Positions 24,757 to 57,323 are shown, counted from the first letter of the stretch. The stretch is DNA of 64,000 nt from Nemertoderma westbladi (GCA_032718475.1 JAUCBJ010000090.1:1-64000); one strand, 5' to 3'. Notes: generated by a model from the sequence alone, not told the origin. Program-made: numbers and translations.

Positions 24757-24761
24757 ACCCC

Positions 24762-25362: not shown

Positions 25363-25392
25363 GTAACTAGATCGACTACTGCCTGACTACGA

Positions 25393-29410: not shown

Positions 29411-29459
29411 TTATTTAATTAAAAATAAAAATAAATAATAAAAATAATTAAATAATAAA

Positions 29460-30960: not shown

Positions 30961-31174
30961 TTGGGGAAACAAAAATTGTGTGAGAGAAGCGCACGATCGG
31001 CCCGACACGAGACGCCAGAGGGTAGTGACATCATACCCATAGGGAGCGGCCTGGAAAGCCGACTCCAAGAAAATAACTCCACCCCACACCCGATAATAGA
31101 TCGAGTTCCAGCGGAATTGTAGCGCACTTGAGGTGGATGCTATCTTCTCACCGGGAAGATAGCATGGGGGGGAG

Positions 31175-31758: not shown

Positions 31759-31763
31759 ACCCC

Positions 31764-33146: not shown

Positions 33147-33185
33147 AGTGTTAGTTGGTCAGTTTATGGCTCGGCAGTTTATGAC

Positions 33186-33853: not shown

Positions 33854-34709
33854 TACCTCTGCTGGGATTTCATATAATCCACTCGCTTTATTATTGGACA
33901 TACTTTTAATGCTTCTTTGGAGTTCGGCAGGTGTGAAGTCCCCTGTTTCTATAGGTAGTTTATTTTCATATATTTTCCTTGTAGGGCTGACCTCGATGTT
34001 TGGTGGCTGCCCAAGCAAGTTGCTGAAGTGGTTTTACACTTCCCAACACGTTCTTCAGGACTATGGGCTTTGAGGCGCCCCTTTGCACAACTTTTCCGAC
34101 CAGATACCTCATTTACAGTTTGCCATGTAAGTCTTGATTGTTGCTGTATGTGAGCAGTTGTAATTGCTTCAGTTTTATCCTGTATGTACTTTTCCTGGCT
34201 GATGTTGTAGGCCAATTTAAGATCGTCCTTAGCTTTCTCAACCTTGTTAATGTTTTCAGTTGTTGGTTGTTCGGTTTTAACTTTGTAGGCTATCTTAAGA
34301 TCTTCTCTCTTACAAGTAACCTCAGAGTTTTGCCATGGCACATTCTGTTTTCGTTTGGGTTTCTGGGGGATATGCCTCTTAGATGATTCCTTGTGGGCTG
34401 TTATTATATTCTGGTATATTGAATTGGTGAATTGGTCTTCATCCATTGACTGAAGTGCTTCAAAGCGGTTTTGAACTTCTACTGTATAAGCATCCTTTAG
34501 AGCATTGTCAGTCACTGAGCCTCTCACTGAGTTTCTCCCAGTCATATTTGATTTGCTTGCTTGTCCTTGGTTTGCTGGCTCTCAAACTGAGTCTGATCTC
34601 TGCAGTCACAATTCTGTGGTCCGAACCAATTAGGTTGAACGAGCTGTATGCCTCGCAGTTGATCATGCTGTTTCTCCACTTTTTGTTTATAAGGATGTAA
34701 TCCAGTTGT
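33854..34709 (-). mobile_element. RTE family-1 LINE, upstream part of the copy split by element A (5'-truncated)
   Basis: QLDYILINKKW, SDHRIV, EVQNRFEAL and KASGLYEIPAEV; collinear with ~7100-7876. Confidence 0.9.
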
Positions 34710-36667: not shown

Positions 36668-38674
36668 TTCTTGAGCCGGTCTCGGGCGTTAAATCTTCGG
36701 TGCTGGAACTAGGGTCACTAAGTGGTTGAGAGATAACCTCTTGGTCAGGGCGCCGCCGCTGTTCTACAGCCATCGGTTGGTCTCGCTTAACTTGAGCCCT
36801 AGGGCCTACCAGGCTGCAAACCTCCACTGAACCGCGCACAACGCCTGCACACAATTTTTCAGCCGTGCAATATTGGACAATACTGGAGTATTGGAGAATA
36901 TATTGGAGAATATTGGAGTGTGATAGTACGTCTCATAGGCTGCCTCATCCTGGGGATATTGGTTGAGTTGATTTGGGATATTGTGCAGAGCTCTATTGTG
37001 GACCCAGAGGGGAATGTGTCACTCTATTGTTAGGCTTACCGCTAACAGCCTGTATTCACTTAACAGGTAAAACAGCTGTGGTTTACATCTATTTGGTGCT
37101 CTGTGCATGGGGTTTGATATAGGCAGTACTATACCGAGAGTGTAGAGTCCGAGGTTGTGGGTTGGTGTCGGTTTTGTTTTTGTATTTATGTAGTATTTCC
37201 AGTTATGTATTGTCGCTGATACTTTTAGCAAATGAAACTAAAGTCTGTAACTTTAAGAAATTGTATATTTATGACAAACCATATCGACCCTGAATCCCGG
37301 GACCTGGGGTGAACTCTCATACATGCACCGAACAAAACACGCACACCACATTTTAACAAAAAAATAAAAAATAAAAAAAATAAAAACATACGCGAGCGAA
37401 GTGAGCAAAATTTTTTTCATTAAGAATGTATAATGAAAAAAAAATGCGAGCGAAGCGAGTGAAATTTTTTGTGGCAAATTATTTTTCTCACTTTGAACAG
37501 TTGCATGCATGTAAACCTTTTTACACCACATCCAGACATCGGCCTGTCCACGCACTTTTATGACTTTTGATATTTTGCACAGATTACTGCGCACTTTTGT
37601 TGTCTTTCACATAAATTTTGCGCACTTTTATTTCAATTCCGCGCACATTTACCAAGCACCATTTCAAATACGCGCACAAGACGTTCGATTTTTGGACTTC
37701 ATTTGCAGCCTGGAGTGCCTATAATAGACCTATGGTGCTTCACTAACCTAGGGTCTGACACAACTACTGTAGGGATGGCCTTTCTTACAGTAGGAGGAGG
37801 GGACTTAGACCTCGGTTGTGGCCTTTCTATACTTTGATATGGGTCACAGATTGTCTGTTCCAAAAGACTATCTGACATTGTTTGTTTTAGGTCAGACATA
37901 ATTAAATCACAGTTGAATGCCTCTCACTATAATAACAGTTAAAGTAAGTCTAGGGAAAATCAGTATCAACTGTCAGTCTTGTAGTTACCAAATATTGTTA
38001 CTCAATGTAACGTGGGTAGATATCGAGTGTTATAATACTGGTATACACCTATTAATAGTATATAACAGTATTACTACAGACTAGGATCAATCACTGAATA
38101 CCGGTATATAAGTTTAGCCTAAGTTATATAAATATATAATAAGCTTACGGTAGGCACTGATTATCAATAATTAAATAATAACTGATTATCCGATTTTAGG
38201 AATTATTTCCCTTTTACTCTATTACTGATATTGAGTAATAGGTTCAACTGATAGTAAGACATAATTGATGTATAACAGGCCTACTAATTTATAAATCTGA
38301 TTGAATTAAATTTATAAATATATATACCCATAATGGGTTTTGTCAATTATTGAAATAAATGTTATTATTTCTTTATTCTTTATTAGTACGAAGTCACTAC
38401 ACAGAGGTTGGACGCTCTCAGTGGAGTGCTACTTGTTAGACACTAAATACTGATAGTTCTACTTAACTACGTTACTTATCACTACAAATTACTTACGTAT
38501 AACGGGTTGAGATTACACAATCTCTAAATAAACAATAAACAAAGTTACACGTACAATTTTTAGGGTAATTTTACAAGAATTTTACAAACCAGACTACCAA
38601 GAATTTAGAATTTCTGGTTCTTACAGACTGACAGGGAATTTACATAATTTTGAAACCAATAAAGTAGTATTCAA

Positions 38675-39650
38675 TGTTCGCGGTATTTCAACTTTTCCTA
38701 ACGCGAGTTGAATATTTTTTGGATTTATTTAAAATGATTATTCCGATATTACTACTGGGTGCGGGAACATGGGTTTTAGGCACACTCGATGGACTGGGGG
38801 CGATTTATGGGCGAATATTGGGGCGCTTACGGGGTACGGGACTCATTTCATGTATATAAGGGCCAGGGGGGGAAGACAAAGTTAAGCAGTATTCAGGTTT
38901 ACCTGATTACTATTAGGCCTAGCCAATTTCCTGCTGCCTGTAGAGGTGGATTTGGTAACTCGCTAGGTCTAAAGGACAAGGACTGCCCTTAGCGGTCCCT
39001 GGCCAACAGCAGTTATTACGAGCCTGAAAAGTACATCGGAAAGTCTGCTGCTTGTGTCAGGGATTTGCGACGGGAAACGACGACAGACCCCGTAGCCAAG
39101 CCGTACTGGTTCTCGATGATCGTTCCCTTCGGGGTTCGTAAGGGGTGGGACGGACACGCGAAAGGGTCGACCGACTAACAGAGGAAGGGTTTGACAAGAC
39201 TGCCCTTAGCGGTCTCTGGTCAACAGCAGTTATTACGAGCCTGAAAAGGACATCGGAAAGTCTGCTGCTTGTGCCAGGGATTTGCGATGGGAACCGACGA
39301 CAGACCCCTTAGCCAAGCCGTACTGGTTCTCGATGATCGTTCCCTTCGGGGTTCGTGAGGGGTGGGACGGATACGCAACGGGGTCGAAAGACAAAGGACT
39401 GGACTCTACTGGCCTACCGACTGTTCGGATCAGTTTCTCGGTTGCCGAAGCGACTATGAGCCTGAATAAGGACTCGGAAAGCCTAGGTGGTTGGGACTCC
39501 ACCGCGATGAACCGACTGACCCCTAGCCAAGCCGTACTGGTTCTGGATGATCGAACCCTTCGGGGTTCGGGAGGGGTGGGACGGACACGCGAACGGGTCC
39601 ACCGACATGACAGACTCCTAGCCAAGCCGTACTGGTTCTCGATGACCGAT
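38675..39650 (+). repeat. 5' LTR of element C; its 3' part and the PBS have been lost by deletion
   Basis: Matches 50248-50999; homology stops abruptly at GATGACCGAT (39650); TATA-like TATATAA at 38853-38859. Confidence 0.85.
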
Positions 39651-39878
39651 GACCTCGATGGAAGTATCGATCACACCCATTGACATAATGCAAGTTGAGC
39701 CAGGAATCTGGCACGTCGAGGTTGAAGTACAAGGAACGAATGTCGGACGATTCAGGATTACCGTTCGAGTAGTCCAAGCTGAGTACGAGAGCTACGAAGA
39801 ACTATTCTACGACATCGCATATCTAGCTATCAACGAGTCGCTAGAATGACAACGAACAACGTCTCCGACACCGATTAG

Positions 39879-42800
39879 ATGGACACCCACACAGACTCAG
39901 AAGCCGACGAGGTACCGAATATCAAGAACATGACCCGTCGACTAGGTGCTCTCAAAGGCGGAGTCACTCGAGCGTATCAGCGTATAGAGAAACAAGTCAA
40001 GAGAGTCGAAACTCCCCTCAACGAGATACAAACTCAGCTTCAGAATATCCGAAGTATCTTACAACGATATGAGAGGATGATACAGGCGTATCAAGAACTC
40101 ATTCCCTCCACCGATCAGGTAAACTACCCCAGGTTAGAAGAACATGTTGTACATCTAGATGAGTTCCGCAAACAACACCGGAGGACCCTCAGCCTTGTGA
40201 GAGGCTACGAAGAACAGTACTACAAGAGAGCTGAAAGAACAGACGCAGAATCGGTGCGAACCTCCAGCACCAGGACAGCAATACATCGAAAGAGAACGGG
40301 GTCCTCTAGGAACCAGCACTCCAGCGCTAGGAGCGCGGTGTCCGGTTCAGCACATAGCTCTCAAGGGGGTCAGCCACTCCGAGACCAGCTACGAGAACAG
40401 AAGGCATTAGCCCTCAAAGCTCGGATGGAAAATGAGTATGTTCAACTGCGTACCGAGCAAGATGTATTAGCAGCCGAAATGCAAAAACGAGAGGCCGAAC
40501 AAGAGGCCGAACGGCAGGTCGAACAACGCGAACAGGAGGCTGAACAGCATAGACGAGACGCCAAACAACGTAAACAGGAGGCTGAAAGGCATAGACGAGA
40601 GGCCGAACGGCAGGCCGAACAACGTGAACGAGAGGCCAAACAACAGGCCGAACAACGTGAACATGAAGCTGAACAACGTAGACGAGAGGCCAAACAAGAG
40701 ATCGTACAACGTAAATGGGAGGCAGAAATGCGTAAACAACACGCCGAGGCCCAAGCGATTCTCATCCACAAAAAGAATGCGGATATTGCGAAACTCGCGG
40801 AATACGAAGCCGCGCTTATAGAACGAGATATTCAAATATACGAGGACTGGGAAAGGGGTATAGACCAGAACTATGAACCAATACCGATACCAGAATTAGA
40901 GAAGTCATTAACGACACCGGCGGTGAAACCTCCGAAACCCGAGTTCCCGCCTACCATACAGTCTACATTATCGGCACAAGCACCGGTATTCCATCCCCCA
41001 CCGGTTACGCTTAAGAATGAGGAACCTTATACCCCCCCCGAGCGTTCCCAAGTACGAGCCTGAAAAGGACTTGGAATGGGTCGCCACTCCCTGCTCCAAC
41101 AACCCGTTTACATCCACACCACAAATCCGTAGCCGAGTCATCATTAAAACACCACCTATCATCGATCCATCGTGTATGGGAGAGAGTGCCAATAACTATA
41201 ACCCTCCTAGTCATTCCGGTTCAGACGACATTGGCATTATCCGGGCATTAGAGAACCGACTGGCCATGCCCAAGATGGAGATCCGCACCTTCGAAGGAGA
41301 TCCCGTCGATTACCTCAGATTCATGAAACGGTTTTTCGCCCAGATTGGGTCAACGGACATAGCTGATGCACAAAAAATAGTATATTTATCCCAATACCTG
41401 GGTGACAAACCACGCCGGATTATCGCATGCTTTGAGGGAGGAGCTCATGAGGCATACTATGACGCATGGAAAACTCTAGATAAAAGATACGGAAATATCG
41501 GGACTATAATTAATAAAACTCTCGAGAAACTGATACAGGACGCGGGATCTCTAGGGGACCCACAGAATATCCAGGAATTCTCAGATTCCATGAAGGATGC
41601 CTACTATACTCTAAAACCATTAAATAAGGAGGAACAAGTAAACAACATTCTAAACCTCCGACAGATCGCCCGAAAGTTCCCCGGATGGCTGCAAAGTAAG
41701 TGGGCCTATAAATGCGTAGATCTCCGGCGTAGACACCCAGATCGAGATCCCAGATTCAAGATCGAGATCGAGATTCCTGGATGATATCTCCGAAGCCATG
41801 AATGACTCGATGTTCTCGAAACAAAGTCTCGCCAAGTTAGACGGATTAGAGAGCAACTCCAGGAGCAAGACGCCCACTCAGAAACCGAGATTCCGTCTCC
41901 TTCCGGTGAGTACAATGGCCATCACCATGGCTGAGGATTCCGACGACGAAGACTACGAGGAACCGACATCAGCCGAGGAATGGGCGTGTTATCTTGCGAA
42001 TTGGGCACCCGAAAGGGAAGGCATCACAAACTCCCTTCTCTGTCTCTTCTGTGGAGAGAAACATAAAGTGGAATTCTGCAGGAAGTTCCAGTTTGCCGAA
42101 CTCGTCCCACGCTTCGAGGCGATCATGAAACACCGAGGATGCTTCCGGTGTCTTGGAACAGGTCACTATGTTCGGGATTGCGACCAAAGATCGTGCTGTA
42201 CGGTTTGTAATGACCTATGTCATCACACACTCCTCCACATCCCCGCGAACTTTGACTTCACCACCCTCCCATTTCGGATTGAAGCCAAACGAAGAGGAGA
42301 AACGAACCACGTTTCTAAAGGAACCCGGACGACCCAACGGAGAGAAACCAACCCGTTTAAAACCTCCACCGATGCATCACAAGTGACAAATATCTCAGCC
42401 ACGATCAACCTTATAAATCGCCGTTACATGGTCTTCACCAAAGTAATCCCAGTTAGAATTCAAGGGGTCGGGAAATCATTGACAACGCTCGCATTCCTTG
42501 ATAACGGGTCGGACGGAACCATCATCGACCGAGATTTCCTCGAGCAACTCGGCCTAGATTATGAACCTTGCAAACGGCCCATACAAACGATCACCGACCA
42601 CAGAGAAGTAGAATCCGGGGAGGTGCAGCTCCAGATGGAAGGAGTAATGAAGGGCTACGAGACGGTTAAGCTGACAATCAAGAACGCCTTGGTACACACC
42701 GATCTCCGAGTGCGGTTCCGACAATCAGCCGAATACGCCCCTCTCATACAGTTAGACCGGGAAGATGTAGACCTAAGGTGCCTGCCGTTGGACGTAAACC

Positions 42801-45800
42801 GCATCACCCTATTGATCGGACTTGACACACCGGAATTACACATACCCTCCGGAGACGTCGCCCGATCTATAAAGCAGGATGACGGCTTTTACGCTGAACG
42901 AACAATAATGGGATGGACACTCTGCGGCATCAAGGAAGAGACTACAGACACCTATACATACCTTCCTAAATGTCAGATTAAAGAGAATGCAACCTCCGTG
43001 GGTTATTGTTCAGCTACAGACATTGACGAGGATTTGTTTCTTGAGACCGAGAAAACCCAGCAAGAGATGACTAAATACTTTAATCTAGAGACTCAAGAGT
43101 TCGCTGAAAAGGACGAAAACCCGTCCGAGGAGGATCAATATTGTATTGACGTCCTTGACCAGGCCACGTTCAAAGACGGACACTGGTGTTCACCCATGCT
43201 ATGGAAGGACCCAAATAAACCAATGGCGAATAACGCCAACATGGCCCTTAGGCGACATGAAGGGATCATACGCCGGCTGAATGACCAACCCGAGATAAAG
43301 GAGAAATATAATAATGTAATCAAAGGATATCTTGAAGATGGATTAGCAGAAATGGTACCCCGGAATGAACTGCAAGGGGGTAAAAGAACATATTATCTCC
43401 CAACCCACTATGTGGTAGAAGCCCGGAAGGGTGGTAAAATCCGAGTAGTCAATGATGCCGCCGCTATGTATCAAGGCAAATCCCTGAACAGCCAGCTTTA
43501 CACGGGGCCCAACATATACAGTACACTCATTGGCATGTTGATCAGGTTCAGGGAAAACCAGATAGCATTCACCTGCGACATTAAAGCGATGTTTCACCAG
43601 GTCCGTACGCTACCAAGAGACTCAGACTGTCTGCGTATATTATGGACGGATAAAAGGAGATTAGTCAACTTACATTGAAGGATGTAGACGTAATGCGCAT
43701 GATCGTCAGGATCTTCGGCGCTATGGACTCGCCGGTAGCATGTAGTGACATGTTGAAGAAAACGGCAACTATGTGCGAAAACGAGTTCCCTCCAACCGTC
43801 ATAGAAACCATCCGATGATGCTTCTACGTGGACGACGGATGCGCTGGCGCAGATAATGTTGACGAGGCATATCAGCTAGCAATGGGGATGGTGGAATGTC
43901 TAAGGAAAGGAAGTTTTCCTCTCGTGAAGTTCAGATCCCACGACAAAAAACTTATGGAAAGGTTTCTGGAAGAAATCCGACTGGACAATAATAAAATGTA
44001 TTCCGAGGATGTGGAACACCGTGTACTTGGCATTGAATCAGATGAATTCATTTTCAAATATAACCCCCTACCCAAGCCTATGACGAAAAGGGGATGTTTG
44101 TCAATAAAAAGCGCAATATTCGACCCACTAAACTTCATATCTCCGGTAACCTTGGCCGGAATGAATCTAATTAAGGAAATGTGGATAGAAGGACTGGGAT
44201 GGGATGAAGAACACCCCCCACACATCAGTGTCAAATGGAGAAAGTGGACGGAACAGCTCGAACACCTACATCTTATGCGGATCCCTCGACCGTTCTTCCT
44301 CGATAAACTACCCACCGATATCTTCCAGCTCCATACTTTCTCGGATGCTTCGAATACCAGAATCGGCGTAGTCACTTTCTTAAGAAGACTAAGTAACGAT
44401 GGAAACGGCGATACGAGCTTCTTATTTTCTAAAGCTAAGACGGTATCCGGGGAATTCGTAGCAACGATTCCGAGACTTGAGCTACAGGCCGCGGTTTGGG
44501 CAGTGAGACAGAACCGCAGGGTCATGCAGAACATACGAATCCCCATCGAATCTCAACACTTCTGGGTCGATTCGAGTATCGTTCTCTACTATCTCCACTC
44601 TCCATCACGGCGTCACACCACGTTTGTAGCAAACTGAGCCACGGAGATAAAACAGTGGTGTACCGGCCGAGAACAGTGGCACCATGTGAACGGGAAAGAA
44701 AATCCAGCGGACTTATCAAGCCGAGGCGCCACCCCAAAACAACTCAGCAAAAGTAAACTCTGGCTTACAGGCCCGGAATTCCTACAGCAGCCACAATTAA
44801 CATGGAGTACCCGATTCGATCCCAAACTCGATAGTGGAAAATACTCCGAGGACGACAAGGAGATCCGTAAAGTCCATAGAAGCAACGCAGTGGAAATCTA
44901 TAGTTGTCTGACCGAGCCTGCAAAGGACTCGGGCAGGCACTATAACGTTGCGACGATCACTCAACCAGCGGCGTCTTTACACCTGTTGATCGAGCAAACT
45001 TCATCAATGAGACGGCTCATCCACCACGTTATAACCCTTCGCAACTTCTTACGGTGGAAAGACAACAAACCGATAGTTAAACGGAGTATACAAGAACTCA
45101 TTATCGCGGAGAAGTGTATTGTTGGATATGTCCAGAGAGAAAGTTTCCCCGATGAGTGGGAACAACTTAGTGCGGGCAAGACCCTGAAACCGGACAGCCC
45201 AGTCTACCAATTGAGACCAATGATGGGAGAGGACGGACTGATTCGACAGAATACCCGGATGGCAAACGCCCCGGTTGAATACGAGGTTAAATACCCAGCG
45301 CTTCTGCCCGGAACGTCGACACTAGCCAAGCTATTAATTCAACAGTGTCACGAGGAAAACCACCATGCGGGACAGAACTGGATTATAGCTAATATAAGAC
45401 AAAGATATTGGATCACCCACATCCAGCCACTGATCCGGAAAGTGTTAAAACGTTGCTTTCCCTGCAGAAGATATCTAGCGCCACCACTCACACAAAAGAT
45501 GGCCGACTTACCAGCCACACGTCTACAGTCCGATTCCCCACCGTTCTATGTAACCGGAATAGACTGTTTCGGACCATTTACGGTCATCGAGCGACGATCC
45601 AACATCAAATGCTGGGGAGCCATATTTACCTGCCTTAGGTCTAGGGCAATCTACCTAGACATCGTGGTGAACCTTACGCAACACACATTCATCAACGCCC
45701 TGCGTCGGTTCGTGGCGAACAATGGGACATGCCGTCATATGTACTCCGATAATGGTACAAACTTTGTGGGAGGAGAAAGAGAACTTAGAGAGGCGATCGA

Positions 45801-46523
45801 GGGATGGTTTACCGAGGACACCGCATCCCAAGTCTGGAGGGACCACCATATACAGTGGCACTTCCAAACACCCTTAGCACCCCATACGAGCGGGGTATGG
45901 GAGAAGCTAATCGACTTAGTAAAACGGTCCATGCGCGTCGCATTAGGAGACACCCAGGTAACCCATTCCGGGTAATCCGCACAACGTTCTGCGAGATCAC
46001 GGCTACCCTGAACAACCGGCCCATTGTCCCTATCCGCGACGACCCCATGGATTTGGAGCCCCTCACTCCTAACCACCTACTGGGAAGACCCAAAACCCAT
46101 ATTCTCCCAGAGACGATGTTTCCGGATCCCAACGATATCGCGAGACATACAAATTGGAAGAAGGCCCAAGCATTGGCAGCGCATTGGTGGAGAATCTGGG
46201 CCCAGGAGTACCTCATAACCCTCCGGACCAGGAGGAAGTGGAACAACACCTACAGGAATGTCGCCGTTGGCGACATGGTGCTGGTGAAAGAAGATCTCAA
46301 AGACCGCGTCCACTGGCCTGTGGCGCGAGTCGCGGCAATACACCCGAGCAAAGACGGATTTGCGAGGACTGTGACGATACGAACGGCAAAGGGCCACTGC
46401 CAACGCCCTATCCAGAGGCTGTGCCTTCTTGAAGGCAATGACAGCGGTGACTCTATGAGAGGTGATAAGTTCCCTACTCAGGATCCTGCTGCAGACATTG
46501 GTGACAATTATAAACCCGTTTAA
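39879..46523 (+). pseudogene. gag-pol: Element C gag-pol polyprotein with several frameshifts and stops
   Basis: TFEGDPVDYLRF (DUF1759-like); three knuckles CLFC..H, CFRC..GH and CTVC..HH; protease FLDNGSDG; RT YYLPTH, KIRVVND, DIKAMFHQV, YVDD; RNase H FSDAS, IPRLELQAA, WVDS; integrase HHCC, TGIDCFGPF, SDNGTNFVG; C-terminal RVHWPVARV. Confidence 0.95.
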
Positions 46524-46794
46524 ACCCTTCTCATCCTGTTGACAAACTCCTGATGAAAATGGACCCCCCTTAAACCAACTGTAACCACGCAATGGTATTT
46601 GTGTTTCCTTGTGTGCTATGTGGAGTCCAGCGTCACCCTGCAGATGTTTCGACTGACGCAGGGTCGTTTATGTATTGTTTACCCTGATTTTGGTCATCGG
46701 GACCAACGATATTGGATTATTGGAAATGGTAAAGATTTGAAGTGGAATTCATTGTATCCATTGTAGTATGTTATGTTGTCAGTTGCGTGCGCAG

Positions 46795-47185
46795 TTCGGG
46801 GCGTAGGCGGTGTAACTAGTCCAGCTGTAGATCCCGGATTGCCGCGCAACACCCCCTCTATCCCGTTATTCTGGTGGATCCATGGTGCATCCACATGACT
46901 TCGACGATAGAGGGTTTTATGTTTCTCAGTCGCGTTATTCTGGTTGGACCGTTGCGTGGATTTTGGGGCATAGGCGGTGTAACTAGTCCAGCTGTAGATC
47001 CCAGAATGTTGCGTAACCCTATCCCACATGACTTCGTCGATTGAGCTTTATGTTGTTGGGAGTGTTATTCTGGTGGGTCCCTGGTGCATTCCACGTGACT
47101 TCACTTCCAGCGTCTTCATTGTCCGTTACGTGTGCAGTTTGGGGCGTAGGCGGTGTAACTAGCCCAGCTGTAGATCCCAGATTGT
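46795..47185 (+). repeat. Triplicated ~35-bp motif in the non-coding spacer between pol and ORF3
   Basis: GGC(G/A)TAGGCGGTGTAACTAG(T/C)CCAGCTGTAGATCCC at ~46801, 46967 and 47143. Confidence 0.8.
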
Positions 47186-47758
47186 CGCGTAACACCACTT
47201 CCACAACGAAAATTTCCCAAAGAAGATGATTGAATGTAGTTGGAAAAGATGAAAAGAAACAGACGACATTACTATAAACTGAATGTGACGCGTATGATGA
47301 TGAAAATGAAATGATGCGCACCCTGGTGCTGCGCTTATAACAAATGATGATAGCCTGGGGGCTATAACCCCAATGATGATATGGAAATAAATGAAATGTG
47401 TAATAAATGATGAAATGGTGGAACTAAATGATGAAATGTGTTGAAATAAATGAAATGTACAATGAATAATAATGAGAAATGAAAAAAGAATGTATAAAAA
47501 AAAATGTATAAAATATAAAAGAAAAGAATTGGAAAAAAGAAGAGGACATAAAAAGTCAAAACTGGTTGGATATTAATGTATAGCTATAGTAACTGTAAAT
47601 GCTGAATGTATTAGCAATAAGATGGTAGATGCCTATTTAGCAATGTTATTTAATAAACTGAATTAAAAATAAACTGAATTATTCTGCAATCACTATAGTA
47701 TCAGACTTTCTGGATTTATAATTAACTGATATAAATTTGCAACGGACATAATTTAAAT

Positions 47759-49579
47759 ATGGACCCAAATCGCCAAATTATCGGCGAATTACGTCATACG
47801 ATAGATCTACTGGAATATCCACAACCTGGATCCCTTAACTTTGATACAAATTGGAGCACCCTGATAAATGAGAATGTGCGAGTCGTCAAATTCTCCGGGC
47901 GAGAGGGACAGGATTCCCGGAATCTACAAGCCCTCCGGTTAGCCGATGCTAGTACGAGCCTGAAAAGAACTCGGAACGCAAAGGCTACCGGAGGGGATGC
48001 ATTGTCGTACTGGGATACGTTCCGGCAAAGCGTCTACAAATCCCGATGTTTGATATACGACAACGAGGGAAACGCGACGCCCACCTCGAAAGCGATGACG
48101 TTGGCGCGATGTCAAAGTTTCATTGATGACAAGAGTATGTACCTCGCCCACTGGGGAAACCTAGCGGAGTGTACGGCGACGCTACGAGAGGAACGTATAT
48201 TGGTTATCCAGAATCGCGACGACTACCAGGAGAAGTACGGGACGAAAGAATACGGTCGATCCTTGGTCGTCGTCCTCGGAACCCTGGATGGTTTGGTATT
48301 GGTGTGTCGAATATTTCCGACACCCAGACAGGAGGTACGGACAGCCGGAGCTATCTGGCTACTACCTCCGGAGATCCGAAAGATCCTCTTCGACTTCGAC
48401 GTCATTAAAATCGGGTCGGATATAAAGGCGGACGTCCGAAACGACTACGCGAATGCTCCTTTCGGAAGAGACCGTAGAGATGATCTCAACGCCATTAGCC
48501 ATTGCGTCGACACCCAGACTCTATTAGCCTGGCTACGATCCGCCGAATTCATGCGAGGATTCCGGGAGGTGAGACAGACGAAATCCGGTATCGGCTACCT
48601 TGCAGTGCTAAACGGCGGCGTCGATTTTAAACCTCAGAAATTCCAGGACTATAATAAGATATATGGTGGATACACGGGATTGGAAATAAAGAGCGAGCGA
48701 GAGGGTCGATGGAAGGACGTTGACAGGAAGTGGACGATACATCAAAGGTGGGAAAATCCGGACCGACGGAACTACATCTACGTCATTATGGAGTCCTACA
48801 CCGTCGCTAAGTTCATATGTAAAACTCTCGATAACCTCATTACGGTGGTTCCTCGTTCCTTTATCGACTACGACTGGAATGAAGTTATCAGCCACGCCTA
48901 CAAAGCGGTCGAGAATACTACACCGGGAGAGACAAAAACGCTCACCGTTATCGACTCCTGGGATGAGAACGGACCTTTCGACATCCCTACGATTACCGAT
49001 CTCCTCGGTGCGGAGGAGCCTCTGATTTCCTTGGAAGGGGAAGAACTATGGCTACAGGAAGGCGTTCTACTGTCCACCCCAAATCGACCACTCGAGCCAG
49101 AAGCCGCGTACGAACTGGCCGCCAAACGGGTTGCCTCGGCCGAACCTGCGACGGAAGCAGGTGCTTCCACCCCACTCGGCTCCGGTAGCCCTGCGAGGGA
49201 GTTAGTTACTACCTCCACGTTGAGCGACTTCGGCGACATATGCCAGAGGTTATCCCCATATCCTTTCCCGGGTGGCGAAGACTGGTCTTCGGAGATTCCG
49301 AGTACCAGCACTCAACGGACCCGCTCAGCGATACTGGTCGAGAAGGGTCCCAGCGCTGCGCCGACTCCCAAAGATCTCCTCGGAATCCCTCCGTCGAAAA
49401 CCCCGGCACCTCTTCACCGACCAGCGGTGACAACTACCCCCTCCGTTCCACAGGATACTATGCGACTAACCCGATGGTACGCCGAGCAAACCGAATGGAT
49501 CCACCGCCAGAAACGGTCGTCCGTGATGAGGCCGGTGGGACATAAAGAAGGTTATCGGAGCGAGAACCTACTACGCTAA
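47759..49579 (+). CDS. Element C ORF3, 606 aa: DEDDy/WRN-exonuclease-like domain (probably inactive) followed by a Pro/Ser/Thr-rich linker
   Basis: LPPEIRKILFDFDVIKIGSDIKADV, CVDTQTL, SGIGYLA and RWENPDRRNYIYVIMESY resemble, by eye, the Exo II and Exo III region of WRN/EXD/Mut-7 nucleases; no signal peptide or TM segment. Confidence 0.6.
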   Translation: MDPNRQIIGELRHTIDLLEYPQPGSLNFDTNWSTLINENVRVVKFSGREGQDSRNLQALRLADASTSLKRTRNAKATGGDALSYWDTFRQSVYKSRCLIYDNEGNATPTSKAMTLARCQSFIDDKSMYLAHWGNLAECTATLREERILVIQNRDDYQEKYGTKEYGRSLVVVLGTLDGLVLVCRIFPTPRQEVRTAGAIWLLPPEIRKILFDFDVIKIGSDIKADVRNDYANAPFGRDRRDDLNAISHCVDTQTLLAWLRSAEFMRGFREVRQTKSGIGYLAVLNGGVDFKPQKFQDYNKIYGGYTGLEIKSEREGRWKDVDRKWTIHQRWENPDRRNYIYVIMESYTVAKFICKTLDNLITVVPRSFIDYDWNEVISHAYKAVENTTPGETKTLTVIDSWDENGPFDIPTITDLLGAEEPLISLEGEELWLQEGVLLSTPNRPLEPEAAYELAAKRVASAEPATEAGASTPLGSGSPARELVTTSTLSDFGDICQRLSPYPFPGGEDWSSEIPSTSTQRTRSAILVEKGPSAAPTPKDLLGIPPSKTPAPLHRPAVTTTPSVPQDTMRLTRWYAEQTEWIHRQKRSSVMRPVGHKEGYRSENLLR

Positions 49580-50262
49580 AGCCCAGCCTTTTGCGGGCTA
49601 CCAGCCACAGCGAATATTCAAAAGAGCGACCGACGACTCGAGTATTACGTCGGCGTCCCGATCCCGATCTTCTTCGGTCGGGAGATGCAGTTAGAGATAT
49701 GCGCAGACTGCGGTTCGGAGCAGTGCCCACGCGGCAGACGAAATCGAGTAACCGACTCGTGCCTAAAAGCTCCTCGGGATTCTGTATTGTCCATACTGCG
49801 CGACATCGGGACACGACGTCTCAGTTCCGTTGACGGAACTGAGGTTTCCGTGGACATTCCGCTAGCCCCCGCTGCAATATAAAATGTCCCACAAAGGACG
49901 TTACCACTATGGGAAATCTGGTTATGTTCGAAACTTACGCAAATAGCCACATAAAGACCAAGGTACGGAGAAACGCTCGGAATATTGTGCAGGAAATGGC
50001 GTGTGGTTATTTTTCCTTCCCAGAACGCCTCCATACTACAGCGTCGCTACCTTTCCATTACGTGGATCTGTTGCTAAGCGCCGGATTGTTCGGCCCATTC
50101 GAGATCCTTCGACGCTTATATTCGTATAAAGAAGAGTTTGGTGACGGAAAGTGGTTCCTAGAGGCACGCAACACCGAGTTGGAAAGACGAACCGATATGA
50201 TCCCGTTGCCATCGAAAGGAAGAGCCGCCAGGAGACAAGCCGAAACGTTCAACTTTTCCTAA
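49580..50262 (+). pseudogene. Frameshifted Cys/His-rich C-terminal continuation of ORF3
   Basis: CADCGSEQC...C and, in another frame, YCPYCATSGHDVS (from ~49785), then ORF 49909-50262 running into the 3' LTR. Confidence 0.5.
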
Positions 50263-51519
50263 CGCGAGTTGAATATTTTTTGGATTTATTTAAAATGATT
50301 ATTCCGATATTACTACTGGGTGCGGGAACATGGGTTTTGGGCACACTCGATGGACTGGGGGCGATTTATGGGCGAATATTGGGGTGACTTATGGGGTACG
50401 GGACTCATGTCATGTATATAAGGGCCAGGGGGGGAAGACAAAGTTAAGCAGTATTCAGGTTTACCTGATTACTATTAGGCCTAGCCAACTTCCTGCTGCC
50501 TGTAGAGGTGGATTTGGTAACTCGCTAGGTCTAAAGGACAAGGACTGCCCTTAGCGGTCCCTGGCCAACAGCAGTTATTACGAGCCTGAAAAGGACATCG
50601 GAAAGTCTGCTGCTTGTGTCAGGGATTTGCGACGGGAAACGATGACAGACCCCGTAGCCAAGCCGTACTGGTTCTCGATGATCGTTCCCTTCAGGGTTCG
50701 TGAGGGGTGGGACGGACACACGAAAGGGTCGACCGACTAACAGAGGAAGGGTTTGATGAGGACTGCCCTTAGCGGTCTCTGGTCAACTGAAATTATTACG
50801 AGCCTGAAAAGGACATCGGAAAGTCTGCTGCTTGTGCCAGGGATTTGCGACAGGAACCGACGACAGACCCCTTAGCCAAGCCGTACTGGTTCTCGATGAT
50901 CGAACCCTTCGGGGTTCGGGAGGGGTGGGACGGACACGCGAACGGGTCCACCGACATGACAGACTCCTAGCCAAGCCGTACTGGTTCTCGATGACCGATC
51001 CCTTCGGGGTTCGAGAGGGGTGGTACGGATACGCGACAGAGTCTACCGACTGGACCGACCCTTAGCCAAGCCGTACTGGTTCTCGATGATCGATCCCTTC
51101 GGGGTTCGGGAGGGGTGGTACGGACACGCAACAGGGTCGACCGACACCGACACTACGGCACCAAGACTAGGACCGAGGGAAAATCTGGGGAACATTAGTT
51201 AGGCTAAAATCTGAGCGAACAGTGGGTAATTAAATAATATACTGTAGGGATTTATATTGTCATGTATTATTATTGTGAATATTTGGTGTATATTGATTTG
51301 GGGAAGCCCAACTTATTCTCAATCAAGGTTCAACTGTAGGGAAGTTACATTAAAGAGTATATCCAACCAATGCAGCTTTTTCTCAACCGCAATCTTGCAT
51401 TTAAGAACGTATTCCTTCTCCACAATCAATATCCGGTGACTGGCCAGGATTCCATGGTCTGTAAAGTTCCGCCTCCAGCATCGGCGTTTTCCCCCATGGT
51501 GTCGGGAATAACGGCAACA
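50248..51519 (+). repeat. 3' LTR of element C (first ~12 bp and PPT missing), containing arrays of structured repeats
   Basis: Matches 38687 onward; ATTAAA at 51349-51354; ends ...CAACA followed by TSD TTCAA. Confidence 0.88.
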
Positions 51520-53374
51520 TTCAATACTTTGTGTTGTCCAGATAAGGAAATGCCACTGCCTGACTGCCTGACGGCTTATAGTCTACACTATAAACAAACG
51601 TACCCGGAGTGTCCTATACATAGAGATTAATTATCGAAGCCTAAAGCTAACGGACCTATTAACCACGTTACAACACAAATATACTGCATACAAACTAAAT
51701 TAACTTTCAGTAAAGCGCTGTACTCTAAACCCTAGATTAGATACTAGCACTTATACAACATATAACTTAAAGTTAAATATATGTGAACAGCTAAAAGAAC
51801 CACAGCATCTGCTGGAGTGAGCAGAGTATTTAGGCTTAATTATCCGATGCTAAAGAAATCACCAGTCTGTCCTATGCCAAGCAGTCCTGAAGTAGTACCC
51901 GGGTTAATTTAACTATTACGGTATGCATAACAAGCAGAATTACTGTAAGGAATAAACTTGGGGACATGAATGTTGCAAATTACTTGCATAAACTCTGAAT
52001 AATAAATATTACGCTACCCGTACAGACTATTCAAATAAAACACAGACCAAAATGCTGACAGACCACCGCCAAGCCAAAAATAAACCACAGTATATGCAGT
52101 CTCCAAAATGGTTAGTTAGTAAGCGATCTAGACTACATAGTACGACTTATTCTTTCGTGGGGGATTTACCTTACAACTTTGGAAGCCTCCACTGCCTAAC
52201 TAGCACTTTATTGGAAAAATAACCTACACACACTGTAATCCACATCAGACCTAACAACAATCAGACAATAATTCAGCCTATAAGTTACTTTTACAATCCG
52301 AGCAGGTTTACACACCTTCTGCTCAATACTACACTTACCGGTAAATAAAGCCATCAGAAATAAGTAAACCATACAAGGAGTAAGGGTGATCAATCCCTGA
52401 TCCTCTAACAGCCTACAATATCCCGGTACAATATTTCACAATCGAAGTAATACTGCTATAAGGTACCGGTTTGGCACTACTAAGCCTACAGTTTACCGTC
52501 AGACCCGTACGTTAGGGTTTATTGCCTACTGAGCAATAAATGAAAAAATCTAATAATGTTCTACCAGAACATTAGCAAAATCTATTAATGTTTGCGCTTT
52601 TAGACCTTTAACAGTTTAACCTGCTAATTTAAGTGTCTTATGAATCGACTATTGCCCGTACTAATTGACATCATCTGAAACCAGTCTAGCGCAGCGTATG
52701 ACCCACGGGTGTGGGAGACTGGATTCGGTTCTAGAGAAGTATTGCAGTAGGCTACTTTGTATTATTCGATTGATCACTACTATATAATTTCCGACAACTA
52801 TATTTACTTTCGGGGAAATATTAACAGTTCCTTTGGGACGTGGCGCTTTAAGTATCAAGCTGAGTTATGACTAACACTAATTACAACTAGTGGCAATAAG
52901 ATAACGCAAATGGCACATTCTTTAGGAATGCTTTATTAACCTTCACACTAACTTTATACACTAATATTCACACTAATGCACACTGATTTGCCGACTGTCA
53001 CTGATTTTAATCATATATAAGGAGGATTGCAACTCACATACATTGGGATTATGAAATAGCATTTAATTCACACAAACCACTATAAATTGAGCCACAATTG
53101 CTACTGATACACCCTTCTGCTTACCTCAGTAATTAAGAAAGTCAAGGGGGATTTTACGATTATTCATCAGTATTCTCCAAATATAACATCCATTAATATA
53201 AACACCAATTAACAATAGTATAAAACAATGTATTAGAAAGCAGTGCGGTGAAATGAGTATGAATAGTTTAGTATGAGCATGAAATGAGTCGTTAATAGAT
53301 TCGTGTTCTTATGACTCTAGGTCACTGATGTTAGGGCAAAGTCTGAAATTAAGAATGTCAGTATGAATTCTGAA

Positions 53375-53460: not shown

Positions 53461-53671
53461 AAATATATGTCAACAAAGCAGATTCCTCACACAAAGGAAC
53501 AGCTGGTAGATTTTGTCATTCCAACTCTGAGTTTTTTTACAGACACGTAGTTGTACAATTATATGCCTTTTAGAGTATTTAGCGCATTGTGCAAATGACT
53601 TATTTTGTCCGCAAAAGCTTTTACAAAGCGCTTGAACTATATGTACTAATGATAAACGTTCTATACGAGTG

Positions 53672-54918
53672 GTTATGGGTAACACCTACGCGTAGTTATG
53701 GGTAGCCCCTACGCGTAGTTATGGGTAACATCTACGCGTAGTTATGGGTAGCCCCTACGCGTAGTTATGGGTAACACCTACGCGTAGTTATGGGTAGCCC
53801 CTACGCGTAGTTATGGGTAACATCTACGCGTAGTTATGGGTAGCACCTATGCGTAGTTATGGGTAGCCCCTACGCGTAGTTATGGGTAGCACCTACGCGT
53901 ATTTATGGGTAGCACCTACGCGTGGTTATGGGTAGCACCTACGCGCAGTTATGGGTAGCCCCTACGCGTAGTTATGGGTAACACCTACGCGTAGTTATGG
54001 GTAGCACTTACGCGTAGTTATGGGTAGCACCAACGCGTGGTTATGGGTAGCACCTACGCGTAGTTATGGGTAGCCCTTACGCGTAGTTATGGGTAACACC
54101 TACGCGTAGTTATGGGTAGCACCTTCGCGTAGTTATGGGTAGCACCAACGCGTGGTTATGGGTAGCACCTACGCGTAGTTATGGGTAACACCTACGCGTA
54201 GTTATGGGTAGCACCTACGCGTAGTTATGGGTAGCACCTACGCGTAGTTATGGGTAACACCTACGCGTAGTTATGGGTAGCACCTACGCGTAGTTATGGG
54301 TAGCCCCTACGCGTAGTTATGGGTAGCACCTACGCGTATTTATGGGTAGCACCTACGCGTGGTTATGGGTAGCACATACGCGTAGTTATGGGTAGCCCCT
54401 ACGCGTAGTTATGGGTAACACCTACGCGTAGTTATGGGTAGCACCTACGCGTAGTTATGGGTAGCACCAACGCGTGGTTATGGGTAGCACCTACGCGTAG
54501 TTATGGGAAGCCCTTACGCGTAGTTATGGGTAACACCTACGCGTAGTTATGGGTAGCACCTTCGCGTAGTTATGGGTAGCACCAACGCGTGGTTATGGGT
54601 AGCACCTACTAGTAGTTATGGGTAGCCCCTACGCGTAGTTATGGGTAACACCTACGCGTAGTTATGGGTAGCACCAACCCGAGGCTATGGGTAGCCCCTA
54701 CGCGTAGTTATGGGTAATACCTACGCGTAGTTATGGGTAACACCTACGCGTAGTTATGGGTAGCTCCTACGCGTAGTTATGGGTAGCCGCTACGCGTAGC
54801 TATGGGTAACACCTACGCGTAGTTGTGGGTAGCACCTATGTACCCGAGGATATGGGTAGCACCTACGCGTAGTTATGGGTAGCAACTACGCGTATTATGG
54901 GTAGCACCTACGCGTAGT
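53672..54918 (+). repeat. 23-bp minisatellite, about 54 units
   Basis: GTTATGGGTA(G/A)C(A/C)CCTACGCGTA tandem array; the 10-bp palindrome CTACGCGTAG recurs once per unit. Confidence 0.97.
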
Positions 54919-56152
54919 TTGCATACATAGGACCTGTTCAGCATAGTTACAGTATAAACGTCAGCGTTTGCGAAATAAATATTTTCTAACAAATCAGGAC
55001 GAACGTAACCAAGTTTGCAATGGAGACACGTACTGCGGTAGTTAATATTTTTCGCCATAAAACCAACTTAAAAGCGTTCACATGGCCCACTAAAATAATC
55101 TCAAATCGTACGACTTTTGCCCTAGATACGATGCGACTATGGGCAAGTCGAACTACACTATATTTATAAATGTATTTATTATTAGAGTTAGTTCACAAAT
55201 ATGTCCGCTCCTGTCCCAGACGGTTGATCAGAGTAACCGAAGCTCTAGCACTGTACTGGATATTATAAGAATAACAAAGGCCTACCAGCATTTGCAACAG
55301 TAGGTGGTAAATATTAAAATTTTTATGAATTTTAAATTGAAATAATTTTTATAAATTTTAAATTTATTAAAAAAAATTTGAATTATGGACGAATATTAAT
55401 TTGTTATAAACTGTCGATAAGATTATATTTACAAAATCTCGAAAATGTTAATTTTAATTTCATAATTGGGTTATTTGGTTTTTAGTTCATATTTAGTTCC
55501 ATTAATTTAGTTTATAGTTTTGGTTAGAATAATGCGCCACTGTAATATGTTCCTTTCCATTAATCAATATTTTAAAGACTATTTGGGATACTACAGTATG
55601 TTCGTCTCCATTTACATTCCTCATTCTACAATGCTCTTAGATTTTAATCTTATTATTGTACTTTGAACTTATAACTACAATACTCACTATTTACACGCCT
55701 TTGTTGAAGTAAATAGCAATTGATATTAATTTTGCAGCGATAACGTGGCATTCCATTGGAGTATCAGGAGATTATTGTTTACGAATACCTATAACTACTT
55801 TACACAATGTCCTGGAATCCATATTTTTCTGCAAATTACAATACAGTATAATTGATAGCTAAAAATATCAAAAATAATTTTCATGAAATTTTTTGCTAAA
55901 TAGTTTGTTATTAAAAAGCATCACCCTGTGTGATATAACATCCGTTATAAATTATTTAAAAAGCGTTTTACTATTTTATTATCGCCACCTTCAAAGCAGA
56001 ACCCCCTAAGTCGATTTTTGTATTTCTGAGATAATCGATAAAAACTGTTTATTTTTTAGAGAGATGCCTCAGTTTACTTGTTATTGTGTTTTTGACAAAT
56101 AAATATATATAGAATTCATATAACAAAACATTATATTTAATTTAGAATCACC

Positions 56153-56346: not shown

Positions 56347-56591
56347 TTATATCCAAGGCGTATCGTACGTCCTTAATAATTTAGTGCGTAGTGCGAACGT
56401 AATACATGTGCGCATTTGTTATTCGCTAATACGTGCTATCTAACATGTTAACTACTGTATATAGCATTTTACATTTAGTAGGCCTACTATAATATACATA
56501 CAGTATACACAGTAAATTATATTACGGTAGTAATTTATCTGCCTCATTTCAATAATAATGTATCTTATCACTTAAAAGCAAAACAGATATT

Positions 56592-57323
56592 ATGTTGAAT
56601 TTACCAGGAAACTTCTGCGTCGGATTATATACCTCCATTGTTATAATAATATTATTATCTTCTACCACTACAGCGCAATCTAAATGCAGTGTAGATTATG
56701 ATTGCTTCGGAGATGATGTATGTTGGTTCGGCCAATGTGTTGAATGTTCAACCAATTATGATTGTTTCGATGCAAATAAACCGTATTGTTATTTACAAGA
56801 ATGTATAGAATGTAGATTCAATTCTCAATGTTCCCTTGCAAGTAAACCTTATTGTTATTTACAAGAATGTGTTAAATGCAAAGATAATTATTGTGTGTCA
56901 TTCTTCGGCTATTCAATAGGTGTGGCAGTTGTAATTATCATCTTGCCAATATTGTGCTGCTGCTTCATAAGTATTTTCATATATCAAAAATCTCGCCAGC
57001 GCTCCCAGCTGACTCGGATACCTGTCGGGATGGTGACGTCATCAGCTGCTGCTACTTCCGGCTACATGGGGCCTGCGGCATATCCCGGAAGTCAACCACC
57101 CCCATACCCCGCCGGAAGTCAACCGCCCCCATACCCCACCGGAAGTCAACCAGCCCCATACCCCACCGGAAGTCAACCTGGTATAAACCGCATGGCTCCA
57201 TACCCAACTCAACCGGCACCCTACCCCACTCAACCTGCACCATACCCCATTGCAAGTCAACAACCCGCACCATATCCCACCGGAAGTCAACCTGGTCCAA
57301 ACCCACCTCCTTATCCTACATAA
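56592..57323 (+). CDS. Intronless type I membrane protein: signal peptide, ~3 Cys-rich repeats, TM with CCC, Pro/Tyr-rich tail with PPPY motifs (Shisa-like/WBP1-like architecture)
   Basis: Hydrophobic N-terminus; repeats of form C...DC....C..xC.EC (two share KPYCYLQEC); TM SIGVAVVIIILPILCCCFISIFIY; GSQPPPYP repeats. Confidence 0.8.
   Translation: MLNLPGNFCVGLYTSIVIIILLSSTTTAQSKCSVDYDCFGDDVCWFGQCVECSTNYDCFDANKPYCYLQECIECRFNSQCSLASKPYCYLQECVKCKDNYCVSFFGYSIGVAVVIIILPILCCCFISIFIYQKSRQRSQLTRIPVGMVTSSAAATSGYMGPAAYPGSQPPPYPAGSQPPPYPTGSQPAPYPTGSQPGINRMAPYPTQPAPYPTQPAPYPIASQQPAPYPTGSQPGPNPPPYPT

Follow-up and report, generated by a model that had tools for sequence, protein, structure and literature searches.

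Why should one short hairpin recur in both long terminal repeats (LTRs) and in three coding regions of a single retrotransposon, and what might read it? The initial annotation of the window, the 64-kb stretch of DNA analysed here, had described eight copies of a GNRA-capped hairpin and taken them as repeated protein-binding signals under selection at the RNA level.

The element and its hairpin copies

The hairpins lie in a 12.8-kb BEL/Pao LTR retrotransposon (38675-51519, plus strand) that is abundant in the genome of the host animal. It begins with TG, ends with CA and is flanked by a short target-site duplication (Table 1), and joints of the empty site run from 38668-38673 to 51519-51530. 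The order of domains is the usual one for BEL/Pao (DUF1759 of Gag, CCHC knuckle, protease, Peptidase_A17, integrase zinc finger, DUF5641), with a Pao peptidase/RNase H region and the integrase 3' of RNase H, and pol is 32-37% identical across most of its length to BEL proteins from many animals. The element thus has the domain order, LTRs, TG...CA ends, 5-bp target duplication and pol identity in common with the BEL/Pao elements (Belpaoviridae); it differs from them by the addition of ORF3 and of arrays of structured repeats, and by its pol hairpin, an insert missing in aligned homologues. In the window copy, gag, pol and the tail of ORF3 are interrupted by stops and frameshifts, no primer-binding site was recognisable at the 3' end of its 5' LTR, and its 3' LTR does not start with TG. 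The two LTRs are 96.6% identical over 699 columns. A TATA-like site (50415 in the 3' LTR, 38853 in the 5' LTR) and, in the 3' LTR, ATTAAA at 51229 followed by GT-rich sequence lead us to predict from these motifs a long R region that would contain all LTR hairpins. The window also holds a second BEL element (pol 34-47% identical), truncated by the window end.

The hairpin, about 30 nt long, is present in exactly eight copies in the element, every one on the sense strand and at the coordinate first assigned to it. The 7-mer GAGCCTG occurs within the element eight times on the plus strand and never on the minus strand; elsewhere in the window it has four unrelated minus-strand matches. When a covariance model built from five of the copies was scanned unfiltered over the whole 64 kb, eight matches scored 38-50 bits and the next 11.4, a gap of 27 bits to background; five of these are the training copies and the other three are LTR duplicates of one training copy. 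The same scan gave no ninth copy and none in the second BEL element up to the point where the window cuts it. An LTR-derived 18-mer matched three internal sites at four or fewer mismatches, again three at five, and none on the minus strand (shuffles: mean 0.08; 0 of 1000 reached three). Among the 1263 18-mers of the 3' LTR, the 14 with at least two sense-strand internal matches at three or fewer mismatches all overlap the hairpin motif, and a structure-pattern scan matched only the gag copy, the ORF3 copy and one AT-rich chance site. The count of eight therefore holds, but it reduces to five independent settings, because the copies at 39019, 39236, 50581 and 50799 are a single LTR unit (unit A) multiplied first within the LTR, through a tandem duplication of 217 bp, and again when the LTR itself was duplicated. 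The gag copy is placed in a proline-rich stretch upstream of DUF1759, and the ORF3 copy in the N-terminal part, ahead of the exonuclease-like domain. Along the predicted transcript, the internal copies come at roughly 18%, 49% and 73% of its length and further copies cluster at each end, so that the element bears several stem-loops of one motif over its length, as genomes with dispersed packaging signals do.

In both LTRs unit A alternates with unit B, a UUCG-capped rod with a kink-turn-like GAUGA/GA loop, in which a compensatory change is seen. An internal loop of unit B, GCCAAG facing AYACGC, is kept in all seven whole copies and presumably resembles, imperfectly, the 11-nt GAAA receptor.

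Table 1. Positions of the features in the window, with fold z scores where calculated.
Feature	Position	Strand	Remarks
Target-site duplication, 5 bp	38670-38674 and 51520-51524		flanks the element
5' LTR	38675..39657	+	3' end shortened by internal deletion; other copies diverge 5' of 39658
LTR hairpin unit A, core 39019	38992..39068	+	one upper pair broken; fold z -4.1
LTR unit B, about 90 nt, 5' LTR	39084..39650	+	three whole copies and one partial
LTR hairpin unit A, core 39236	39209..39285	+	fold z -4.5
LTR hairpin A', core 39457	39446..39488	+	5' LTR only; 5-nt loop here
gag hairpin, core 41055	41044..41085	+	AGUA/GAA loop; fold z -0.9
pol hairpin, core 44913	44899..44945	+	GCAA cap, no loop E; fold z -4.6
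ORF3, first ATG 47759	47735..49579	+	probable DEDDy 3'-5' exonuclease-like domain
ORF3 hairpin, core 47955	47931..47995	+	AGUA/GAA loop, long outer stem; fold z -6.1
3' LTR	50240..51519	+
LTR hairpin unit A, core 50581	50554..50630	+	fold z -5.0
LTR unit B, 3' LTR	50645..51145	+	four copies
LTR hairpin unit A, core 50799	50772..50848	+	outer arm degraded here; fold z -1.2

Sequence and fold of the hairpin

The 19-mer consensus quoted in the initial annotation is exact in pol only, and gag and ORF3 each depart from it at a single base; in the LTR unit the 3' strand is longer by an A, one pair is broken at 39019, and the copy at 39457 begins with T. The loops are as described (six GAAA, one GCAA, one GAATA), the last being one base shorter in other genomic copies (place 39467), and so are the three distinct closing stems of the gag, pol and ORF3 copies (CCCA/TGGG in gag, TGTCTG/CAGGCA in pol). 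The AGTA/GAA internal loop reported for gag and ORF3 is present there but belongs to a broader pattern: A-N-U-A/GAA flanks seven of the eight copies, reading AUUA in the LTR unit, ACUA at 39457 and AGUA in both gag and ORF3, and only the pol copy lacks it. The loop E, or bulged-G, motif is defined by AGUA opposite GAA, enclosed by helices, and this sequence pattern is found in gag and ORF3. The bulged A on the 3-bp upper stem, presented as part of the motif, is not fixed, since many sister copies have A.A at the lowest pair.

In a 220-nt context the predicted pair probabilities of the gag, pol and ORF3 copies are 0.85-1.0 (gag core pairs 0.94-0.98), and the copy at 39457 is not predicted to form (0.01). 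Between settings the arms share 2-11 of 20 identical bases, the ORF3 5' arm having 11 of 20 in common with two LTR settings. Against 3484 windows of the same spacing, the arms nevertheless pair better than 95-99.9% of them in LTR unit A, ORF3, gag (over 15 nt) and pol (for the adjacent arms), and those of the pol and LTR copies include G.U pairs. For the ORF3 hairpin the minus strand folds just as well. Covariation across the five settings was not significant (127 of 500 shuffles). Rfam covariance models run over 13 kb gave no match on the motif and one chance-level match (E 1.9) away from it; with the cut-off raised to E 10, the 3' LTR gave no match. A by-eye comparison with consensus features led us to reject the hammerhead, the hairpin ribozyme, the 5S rRNA domain and group II intron domain V, their core residues or partner domains being missing, and none had an Rfam match.

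Coding context and variation among sister copies

The gag and ORF3 copies are read in different frames, as had been noted; the pol copy has the same phase as gag (TEPAKDS versus YEPEKDL), and in the GAAA copies an internal TGA blocks the third phase. All three internal copies occupy weakly constrained protein stretches. At the pol copy, the linker between RNase H and integrase has gained an in-frame insert of about 18-20 residues, which is absent from 100 homologues (insert residues 88-105 are occupied in 0-5% of them), and the E-to-SS distance is 47 residues here versus a median of 27 (92 of 120 homologues with both anchors). The insert clearly exemplifies the gain of an RNA module within a protein linker.

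Among sister copies of ORF3, the sites changed in at least 20% of depth were 3 of 69 in the hairpin versus 14 of 66 in the flanks (p 0.004), and none of the listed changes fell at AGUA, GAA, GAG, the unpaired A or CU. In the closest X4 contig, 2 of 69 hairpin sites versus 14 of 66 flank sites were changed (p 0.001), or 1 versus 8 (p 0.016) once sites at which the window departs from both X4 contigs are set aside. For the divergent X4 contig the counts are 13 of 69 in the hairpin and 10 of 66 in the flanks (p 0.65), and 6 of the 13 hairpin differences break pairs or the GNRA cap. Most of the listed flank changes alter the amino acid; the hairpin changes at 47986, 47941-42, 47949 and 47972 shift a bulge or leave a G.U pair. 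The pair 47959/47968 exists in two forms, both found in LTR-type and in ORF3-type contigs, an apparent switch between C-G and A.A in LTR and ORF3 alike. At fourfold-degenerate sites of ORF3, 0 of 6 core sites versus 4 of 11 flank sites were changed, a difference that is not significant (p 0.24).

The pol-linker insert, the lower variation in the ORF3 hairpin, the strand specificity and the pairing of unrelated arms together argue for selection on the nucleic acid and not on the protein. To this extent the proposal of selection on RNA is supported, and the folded RNA is its likely target.

Candidate readers and rival explanations

ORF3 is probably a DEDDy 3'-5' exonuclease-like protein that has lost the first D-x-E motif. 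Its Atlas features (0.93, 167 shared) lead to a cluster with PF01612 on 50% of members, and its homologue P0123 has a weak PF01612 match (E 0.2); ORF3 itself had no Pfam or PDB sequence match, and its structure models were poor (pLDDT 34-36), with no fold match at E 0.001. The first acidic motif reads Q-x-R in the window copy versus D-x-E in the homologues P0123 and P0124, in a register placed by eye where the automatic alignment was gapped. A word search with ORF3 gave 0 of 3076 candidates, and a search with P0123 recovered only P0123 itself; P0122 and P0125, two of four matches, were rejected as unrelated repeat proteins. The stretch coding for the ORF3 domain (47990-48934) is open in the window copy, and Cys/His-rich remnants in broken frames extend 3' of ORF3 to about 50080.

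The reading that we prefer, at a little short of an even chance, is that the hairpin may be a repeated protein-docking tag on the RNA of the element, read most probably by ORF3, that steers the transcripts. Loop E, the GAG/CUC helix, the unpaired A and the GNRA cap would form a bent helix, and, judging from known motifs, the core letters may be kept while the arms are free to change because such a helix needs fixed base identities. ORF3 would bind the hairpins and bring about nuclear export, transport or protection of the transcripts. Since tags lie in both predicted R regions and in gag, pol and ORF3, all element RNA would be marked and not the full-length genome only; every transcript, whole or partial, would carry several tags, and binding would be multivalent. 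The identity of the reader is the least certain part of this explanation; the loss of the first acidic motif would parallel RNA-binding pseudo-nucleases. Packaging, export and localisation are indistinguishable from sequence, and protein binding as such is what we infer. If the preferred reading is true, it would explain why some LTR elements have an exonuclease-like third ORF, the role of which is left open in PMC5408684. Since the hairpin is short and well delimited, occurs in natural variants and has two candidate readers, the question of how such elements mark their RNA is accessible to synthetic 60-nt RNAs and single protein domains.

The main rival to ORF3 is Gag, whose zinc knuckle or capsid domain would read the hairpins as dispersed packaging or assembly signals that nucleate the particle. 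We consider this somewhat unlikely, although the element has a CCHC knuckle, the copies are spaced along the transcript and clustered at both ends, and dispersed stem-loops with a shared motif are described for RNA viruses and the hepatitis B pregenomic RNA (PMC6281560, PMC7612645). Against Gag, tags in ORF3 and in the predicted R would also mark partial transcripts, so that full-length RNA would not be singled out (both R and an ORF3 message being inferred); the second BEL element, as far as the window includes it, has no copy; and the core exceeds the short loop motifs of known signals in length and is more strictly fixed. The packaging signals of MS2 and hepatitis B are likewise several dispersed stem-loops with one motif on otherwise different stems, as described in PMC6281560, whereas here the shared part extends over about 30 nt, includes a loop E and a fixed helix, and recurs in five settings.

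By analogy the tag would work like dispersed viral packaging or export signals. Rev-type proteins are not known to be exonuclease-like. In the LTR unit there is a run with one mismatch to AAGACA, predicted to be partly paired; AAGACA itself, the CTE loop motif given in PMC4174252, is not in the eight aligned hairpin copies. The MPMV CTE, the gamma-CTE/CAE of MLV and Rev/RRE are likewise cis-acting stem-loops, some in pol, for which copy number matters (PMC4174252, PMC7551171), and the gamma-CTE is described as active only at four or more copies (PMC4174252). In MLV, five elements are scattered along the RNA (PMC4174252, PMC7551171); as these sources describe them they are distinct, whereas here copies of one hairpin are found. 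An 8-nt match of an LTR arm to the SPRE core (PMC8579622) was treated as chance, and an MLV export motif resembling the cap, which we traced to a primer sequence only, was not used.

More specifically, and distinctly doubtful, ORF3 might be a self-encoded adaptor like Egalitarian, a disarmed exonuclease that reads the loop-E/GNRA hairpin which its own element carries in both LTRs and has gained in frame within gag, pol and ORF3 itself, and that routes the RNA, with the kink-turn-like LTR arrays as a second layer; protein and RNA would then be a pair encoded by one element outside the retroviruses. As described in PMC13186709, Egalitarian places an exonuclease-homology domain on stem-loops bent by 3'-strand bulges, one of them likewise in the coding sequence of a retrotransposon, the I-factor; the stem-loops are read in pairs, two per RNA being needed. 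Egalitarian, however, is encoded by the host, requires its winged-helix domains as well and recognises shape with little regard to sequence (PMC13186709), whereas in the present case the candidate reader comes from the element and the letters of the core are fixed. The bdelloid elements Juno and Vesta likewise have an exonuclease-like (DEDDy) third ORF in an LTR element (PMC5408684); its catalytic residues are intact (DEED), in contrast to the missing first acidic motif here, the present element is BEL/Pao, and the word 'hairpin' is absent from the main text of that report.

RNA-RNA contacts, in which GNRA caps dock on unit B loops or on each other and compact, circularise or dimerise the genome with no dedicated protein, are improbable: the alternation of units A and B in both LTRs and the conserved loop of unit B fit them, but the receptor likeness is imperfect, the pol cap is GCAA, and docking needs the cap alone, leaving the fixed GAG/CUC helix and loop E unexplained. 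Quite improbable is passive copying, by which template switching moved an LTR segment into tolerant linkers and recombination keeps the copies alike without function. The weakly constrained sites, the two 47959/47968 forms shared between contig types, as conversion would yield, and the similarity of the ORF3 5' arm to the LTR settings agree with it; however, LTR arms would then come along, whereas each site has its own mutually pairing arms, three in-frame gains of the same 20-30 nt with no other LTR 18-mer are hard to obtain by drift, and the hairpin varies less than the sequence next to it. Very improbable is a dyad-symmetric DNA site for a transcription or chromatin factor repeated along the integrated element, for although the core forms an interrupted inverted repeat whose letters are fixed and show little covariation, and although the ORF3 copy can fold on either strand, all eight copies have one orientation, unrelated arms pair (with G.U in pol and LTR), the loop-E pattern is kept on both its strands, bulge shifts preserve pairing, and the neighbouring repeats are UUCG-capped with compensatory change.

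Beyond the window, scans with the hairpin pattern gave 0 matches each in viral contigs, metagenomes and prokaryote genomes, protein-led locus scans confirmed none among 2 and 279 candidates, and blastn of the LTR units against phages gave no match; no sister family from another species was found in the scans of viral contigs, metagenomes, prokaryotes and protein-led loci. A search of the open-access literature found no report on RNA signals of BEL/Pao elements.

The element and its hairpin copies

The sequence at 38675-51519 is a BEL/Pao LTR retrotransposon that carries, in order, the Pfam domains DUF1759, a weak CCHC knuckle with a weak protease, Peptidase_A17, Integrase_H2C2 and DUF5641. It ends in TG...CA between identical 5-base flanks, and as empty-site evidence public-run contigs connect both flanks directly. 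The 3' LTR measures about 1.28 kb, and the 5' LTR is 96.6% identical to it over 699 columns. The 5' LTR stops near 39657, beyond which other genomic copies carry different sequence, indicating that part of the 5' LTR and the leader has been lost from this copy. Stops and frameshifts also disrupt gag, pol and the tail of the third ORF (ORF3, 47735-49579). The family is abundant in the host (14757, 10900, 7207 and 227 matching contigs in four public runs from at most three samples), and pol homologues are spread over many animals. Contig depth is high on both flanks (38400-38670 and 51520-51600), which other contigs connect to each other; the element is inserted within another abundant repeat.

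The initial annotation had placed a GNRA-capped hairpin of about 30 nt at 39019, 39236, 39457, 41055 (gag), 44913 (pol), 47955 (ORF3), 50581 and 50799, and all eight coordinates were correct. A covariance model from five copies scored 38-50 bits at these sites, and the next best site on both strands of the 64 kb scored 11.4. The proposed consensus was exact in pol, whereas other copies deviate from it. Seven of the eight have A-N-U-A opposite GAA, with G, U or C as N, and pol is without it; we take the variable position to be the bulged position of a loop-E motif. Four LTR copies (unit A: 39019, 39236, 50581, 50799) are one unit multiplied by tandem and LTR duplication, so the independent settings number five: unit A, 39457, gag, pol and ORF3.

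For a non-circular test, an 18-mer seed was drawn from the LTR alone. At up to five mismatches it found the three internal sites and no others, with none on the minus strand, and at up to four it had no match in the remaining 51 kb of the window. Three matches were reached in 0 of 1000 shuffles (mean 0.08). When every sense-strand 18-mer of the 3' LTR was examined for two internal matches, only those of the motif qualified.

Coding context and sister copies

The gag and ORF3 copies are read in different phases, as had been claimed, but the pol phase equals that of gag, leaving two phases in use; the third is blocked by a stop in GAAA copies. The pol hairpin spans residues 88-103 of frame 44638. 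In an alignment of 120 homologues (100 with both outer anchors), columns 88-105 were filled in 0-5%, and two conserved anchors lie 47 residues apart versus a median of 27 (92 homologues having those anchors; one has 60). The near-empty columns and the longer spacing mark the pol hairpin as an insertion, in frame, into the linker between RNase H and integrase. Immediately 5' of the gag hairpin is a run of eight Cs (41032-41039), within a gag frame change at 40927-41063; the upstream frame terminates inside the hairpin. This change may be either damage of this copy or recoding.

Sister contigs aligned to 47860-48060 gave at least 34 differences at at least 32 places, those listed all lying within 47894-48028, and the two public-read contigs that span the ORF3 hairpin each have 6 more beyond those listed. 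Among the differences listed, none fell at AGUA, GAA, GAG, the cap-stem CU or the unpaired A; core depth pools contigs of other settings, so core differences are not specific to ORF3. Places altered in at least one fifth of depth numbered, among those listed, 3 of 69 in the hairpin versus 14 of 66 in the flanks (p 0.004), and the majority of listed flank changes alter residues. We infer from depth values which differences belong to which spanning contig. By this allotment, and among differences listed, the contig closer to the window has 2 changed sites among 69 in the hairpin and 14 among 66 in the flanks (p 0.001), or 1 versus 8 (p 0.016) once positions at which neither contig agrees with the window are removed. 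The divergent contig differs at 13 of 69 versus 10 of 66 (p 0.65). Of its 13 hairpin changes, seven displace a bulge, leave a G.U pair, close a pair or lie in a loop; the remaining six disrupt the cap, a single inner pair or the outermost two pairs. Changes at 47959 (Ser to Arg in ORF3) and 47968 occur in separate contigs, one ORF3-type and one LTR-type each, with depths that sum exactly, so this pair appears to be C-G or A.A in both settings, unphased within single elements. Loose contig ends, inspected by eye, include LTR-type contigs that share 30-31 of 32 bases with the ORF3 copy.

Proposed protein docking and its alternatives

The hairpin is probably a protein-docking tag. More tentatively, this tag may serve post-transcriptional handling, with ORF3 favoured over a host protein as its reader. 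ORF3 matched no Pfam or PDB sequence; Atlas connects its region from residue 80 to 400 with a cluster of 3'-5' exonucleases (score 0.93), and two distant homologues were found (E 2e-7 and 2e-4), one of which (P0123) ends in zinc knuckles. Both retain D-x-E in the first strand; ORF3 reads Q-x-R at that place. DEDDy third ORFs of bdelloid LTR elements, in contrast, have intact catalytic residues and are not known to have a role; the source also mentions inactive DEDD proteins that retain RNA binding (PMC5408684). The exonuclease-homology domain of Egalitarian reads bent stem-loops, one in the I-factor coding sequence, and two per RNA are required (PMC13186709).

From the TATA-like site (38853/50415) and ATTAAA (51229), all LTR hairpins would lie within R. 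The poly(A)-like signals preceding the ORF3 ATG suggest a separate ORF3 message, and that stretch is possibly an internal end of the gag-pol message with an ORF3 promoter of its own. Given both, the tag would be present on every transcript, a distribution better suited to export, transport or protection than to picking out full-length RNA. Gag packaging, the other form of protein docking considered, is less likely.

RNA-RNA docking is improbable; a candidate partner would be LTR unit B, whose 4x4 loop loosely resembles a GAAA-tetraloop receptor. Unit B also holds a second loop-E-like loop, a GAUGA loop facing NGA that we take as a kink-turn-like pattern, and, in its 24 predicted pairs, a single compensatory change; an Rfam search with it gave no match.

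Passive copying is a slightly poorer account of the hairpins still. Outside the core, the arms of different settings have 2-11 of 20 bases in common, yet within a setting the two arms are complementary. Against 3484 windows of equal spacing, 25-nt arm pairing in unit A and ORF3 beat at least 99.7%; gag beat about 95% with 15-nt arms but not at 25 nt, pol more than 99% if the arms adjoin the core, though not once the loop-E offset is applied, and pairing was weak at 39457 and 50799.

A DNA site is the least probable reading. Three results count against RNA: covariation among the five settings was not significant, the ORF3 hairpin folds on either strand, and the search for public runs with this stretch turned up none of RNA. 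Several features favour RNA: all copies point in the sense direction, G.U pairs and GNRA caps occur, bulges shift in sister copies, and both loop-E strands are present. So do units B and C (sense-strand folding z of the C copies, -3.2, -1.4 and -3.2; minus strand of the first, -0.3).

Novelty and neighbouring features

Repeated cis-acting stem-loops in packaged or exported genomes are a known kind. No Rfam family matches the hairpin, the motif was not found in the viral contigs, metagenomes, prokaryote genomes, protein-led loci and phages scanned, and searches of the open-access literature returned no paper on a motif of this kind for BEL/Pao elements. No description of the motif, of its insertion into pol or of its association with an exonuclease-like ORF3 turned up in what was searched.

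Features in and around the element
Feature	Position	Description
Two hairpins	38885-38985; 50447-50547	Just past TATA-like site, at predicted RNA 5' end; z about -2.7
LTR unit B	39084-39650; 50645-51145	Seven whole copies and one partial; rod of about 90 nt, UUCG cap
Unit C	46776-46856; 46945-47020; 47117-47200	Three long hairpins with fixed inner sequence; non-coding, between pol and ORF3
A-rich stretch	47380-47760	Before ORF3 ATG; five AATAAA and one ATTAAA (47386-47668), TATA-like run
Cys/His-rich remnants	49580-50100	Three broken frames past ORF3 stop; weakly similar to knuckle-bearing tail of P0123 (E 0.004)
Second BEL/Pao pol	60867-63970	24-47% identical by stretch; runs off window end
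Gag-like remnants	21749-33158	Rearranged, both strands; weak DUF1759, long coiled-coil and Asn-rich ORFs, many short tandem repeats
Satellite array	14645-18266	About 100 copies of 37 bp
Satellite array	53664-54919	About 54 copies of 23 bp
Non-LTR reverse transcriptase-like fragments	5669-6676; 10882-12736; 19693-20313; 33949-34581	First: RVT_1, E 1e-9
Cys-rich ORF	56559-57323	Cys-rich repeats, hydrophobic stretch, PPPY-rich tail; no Pfam match

The two hairpins just past the TATA-like site occupy a TAR-like position. The covariance-model scan of the 64 kb found no hairpin in the second BEL/Pao pol. By its predicted sequence, the Cys-rich ORF looks like a small membrane protein.
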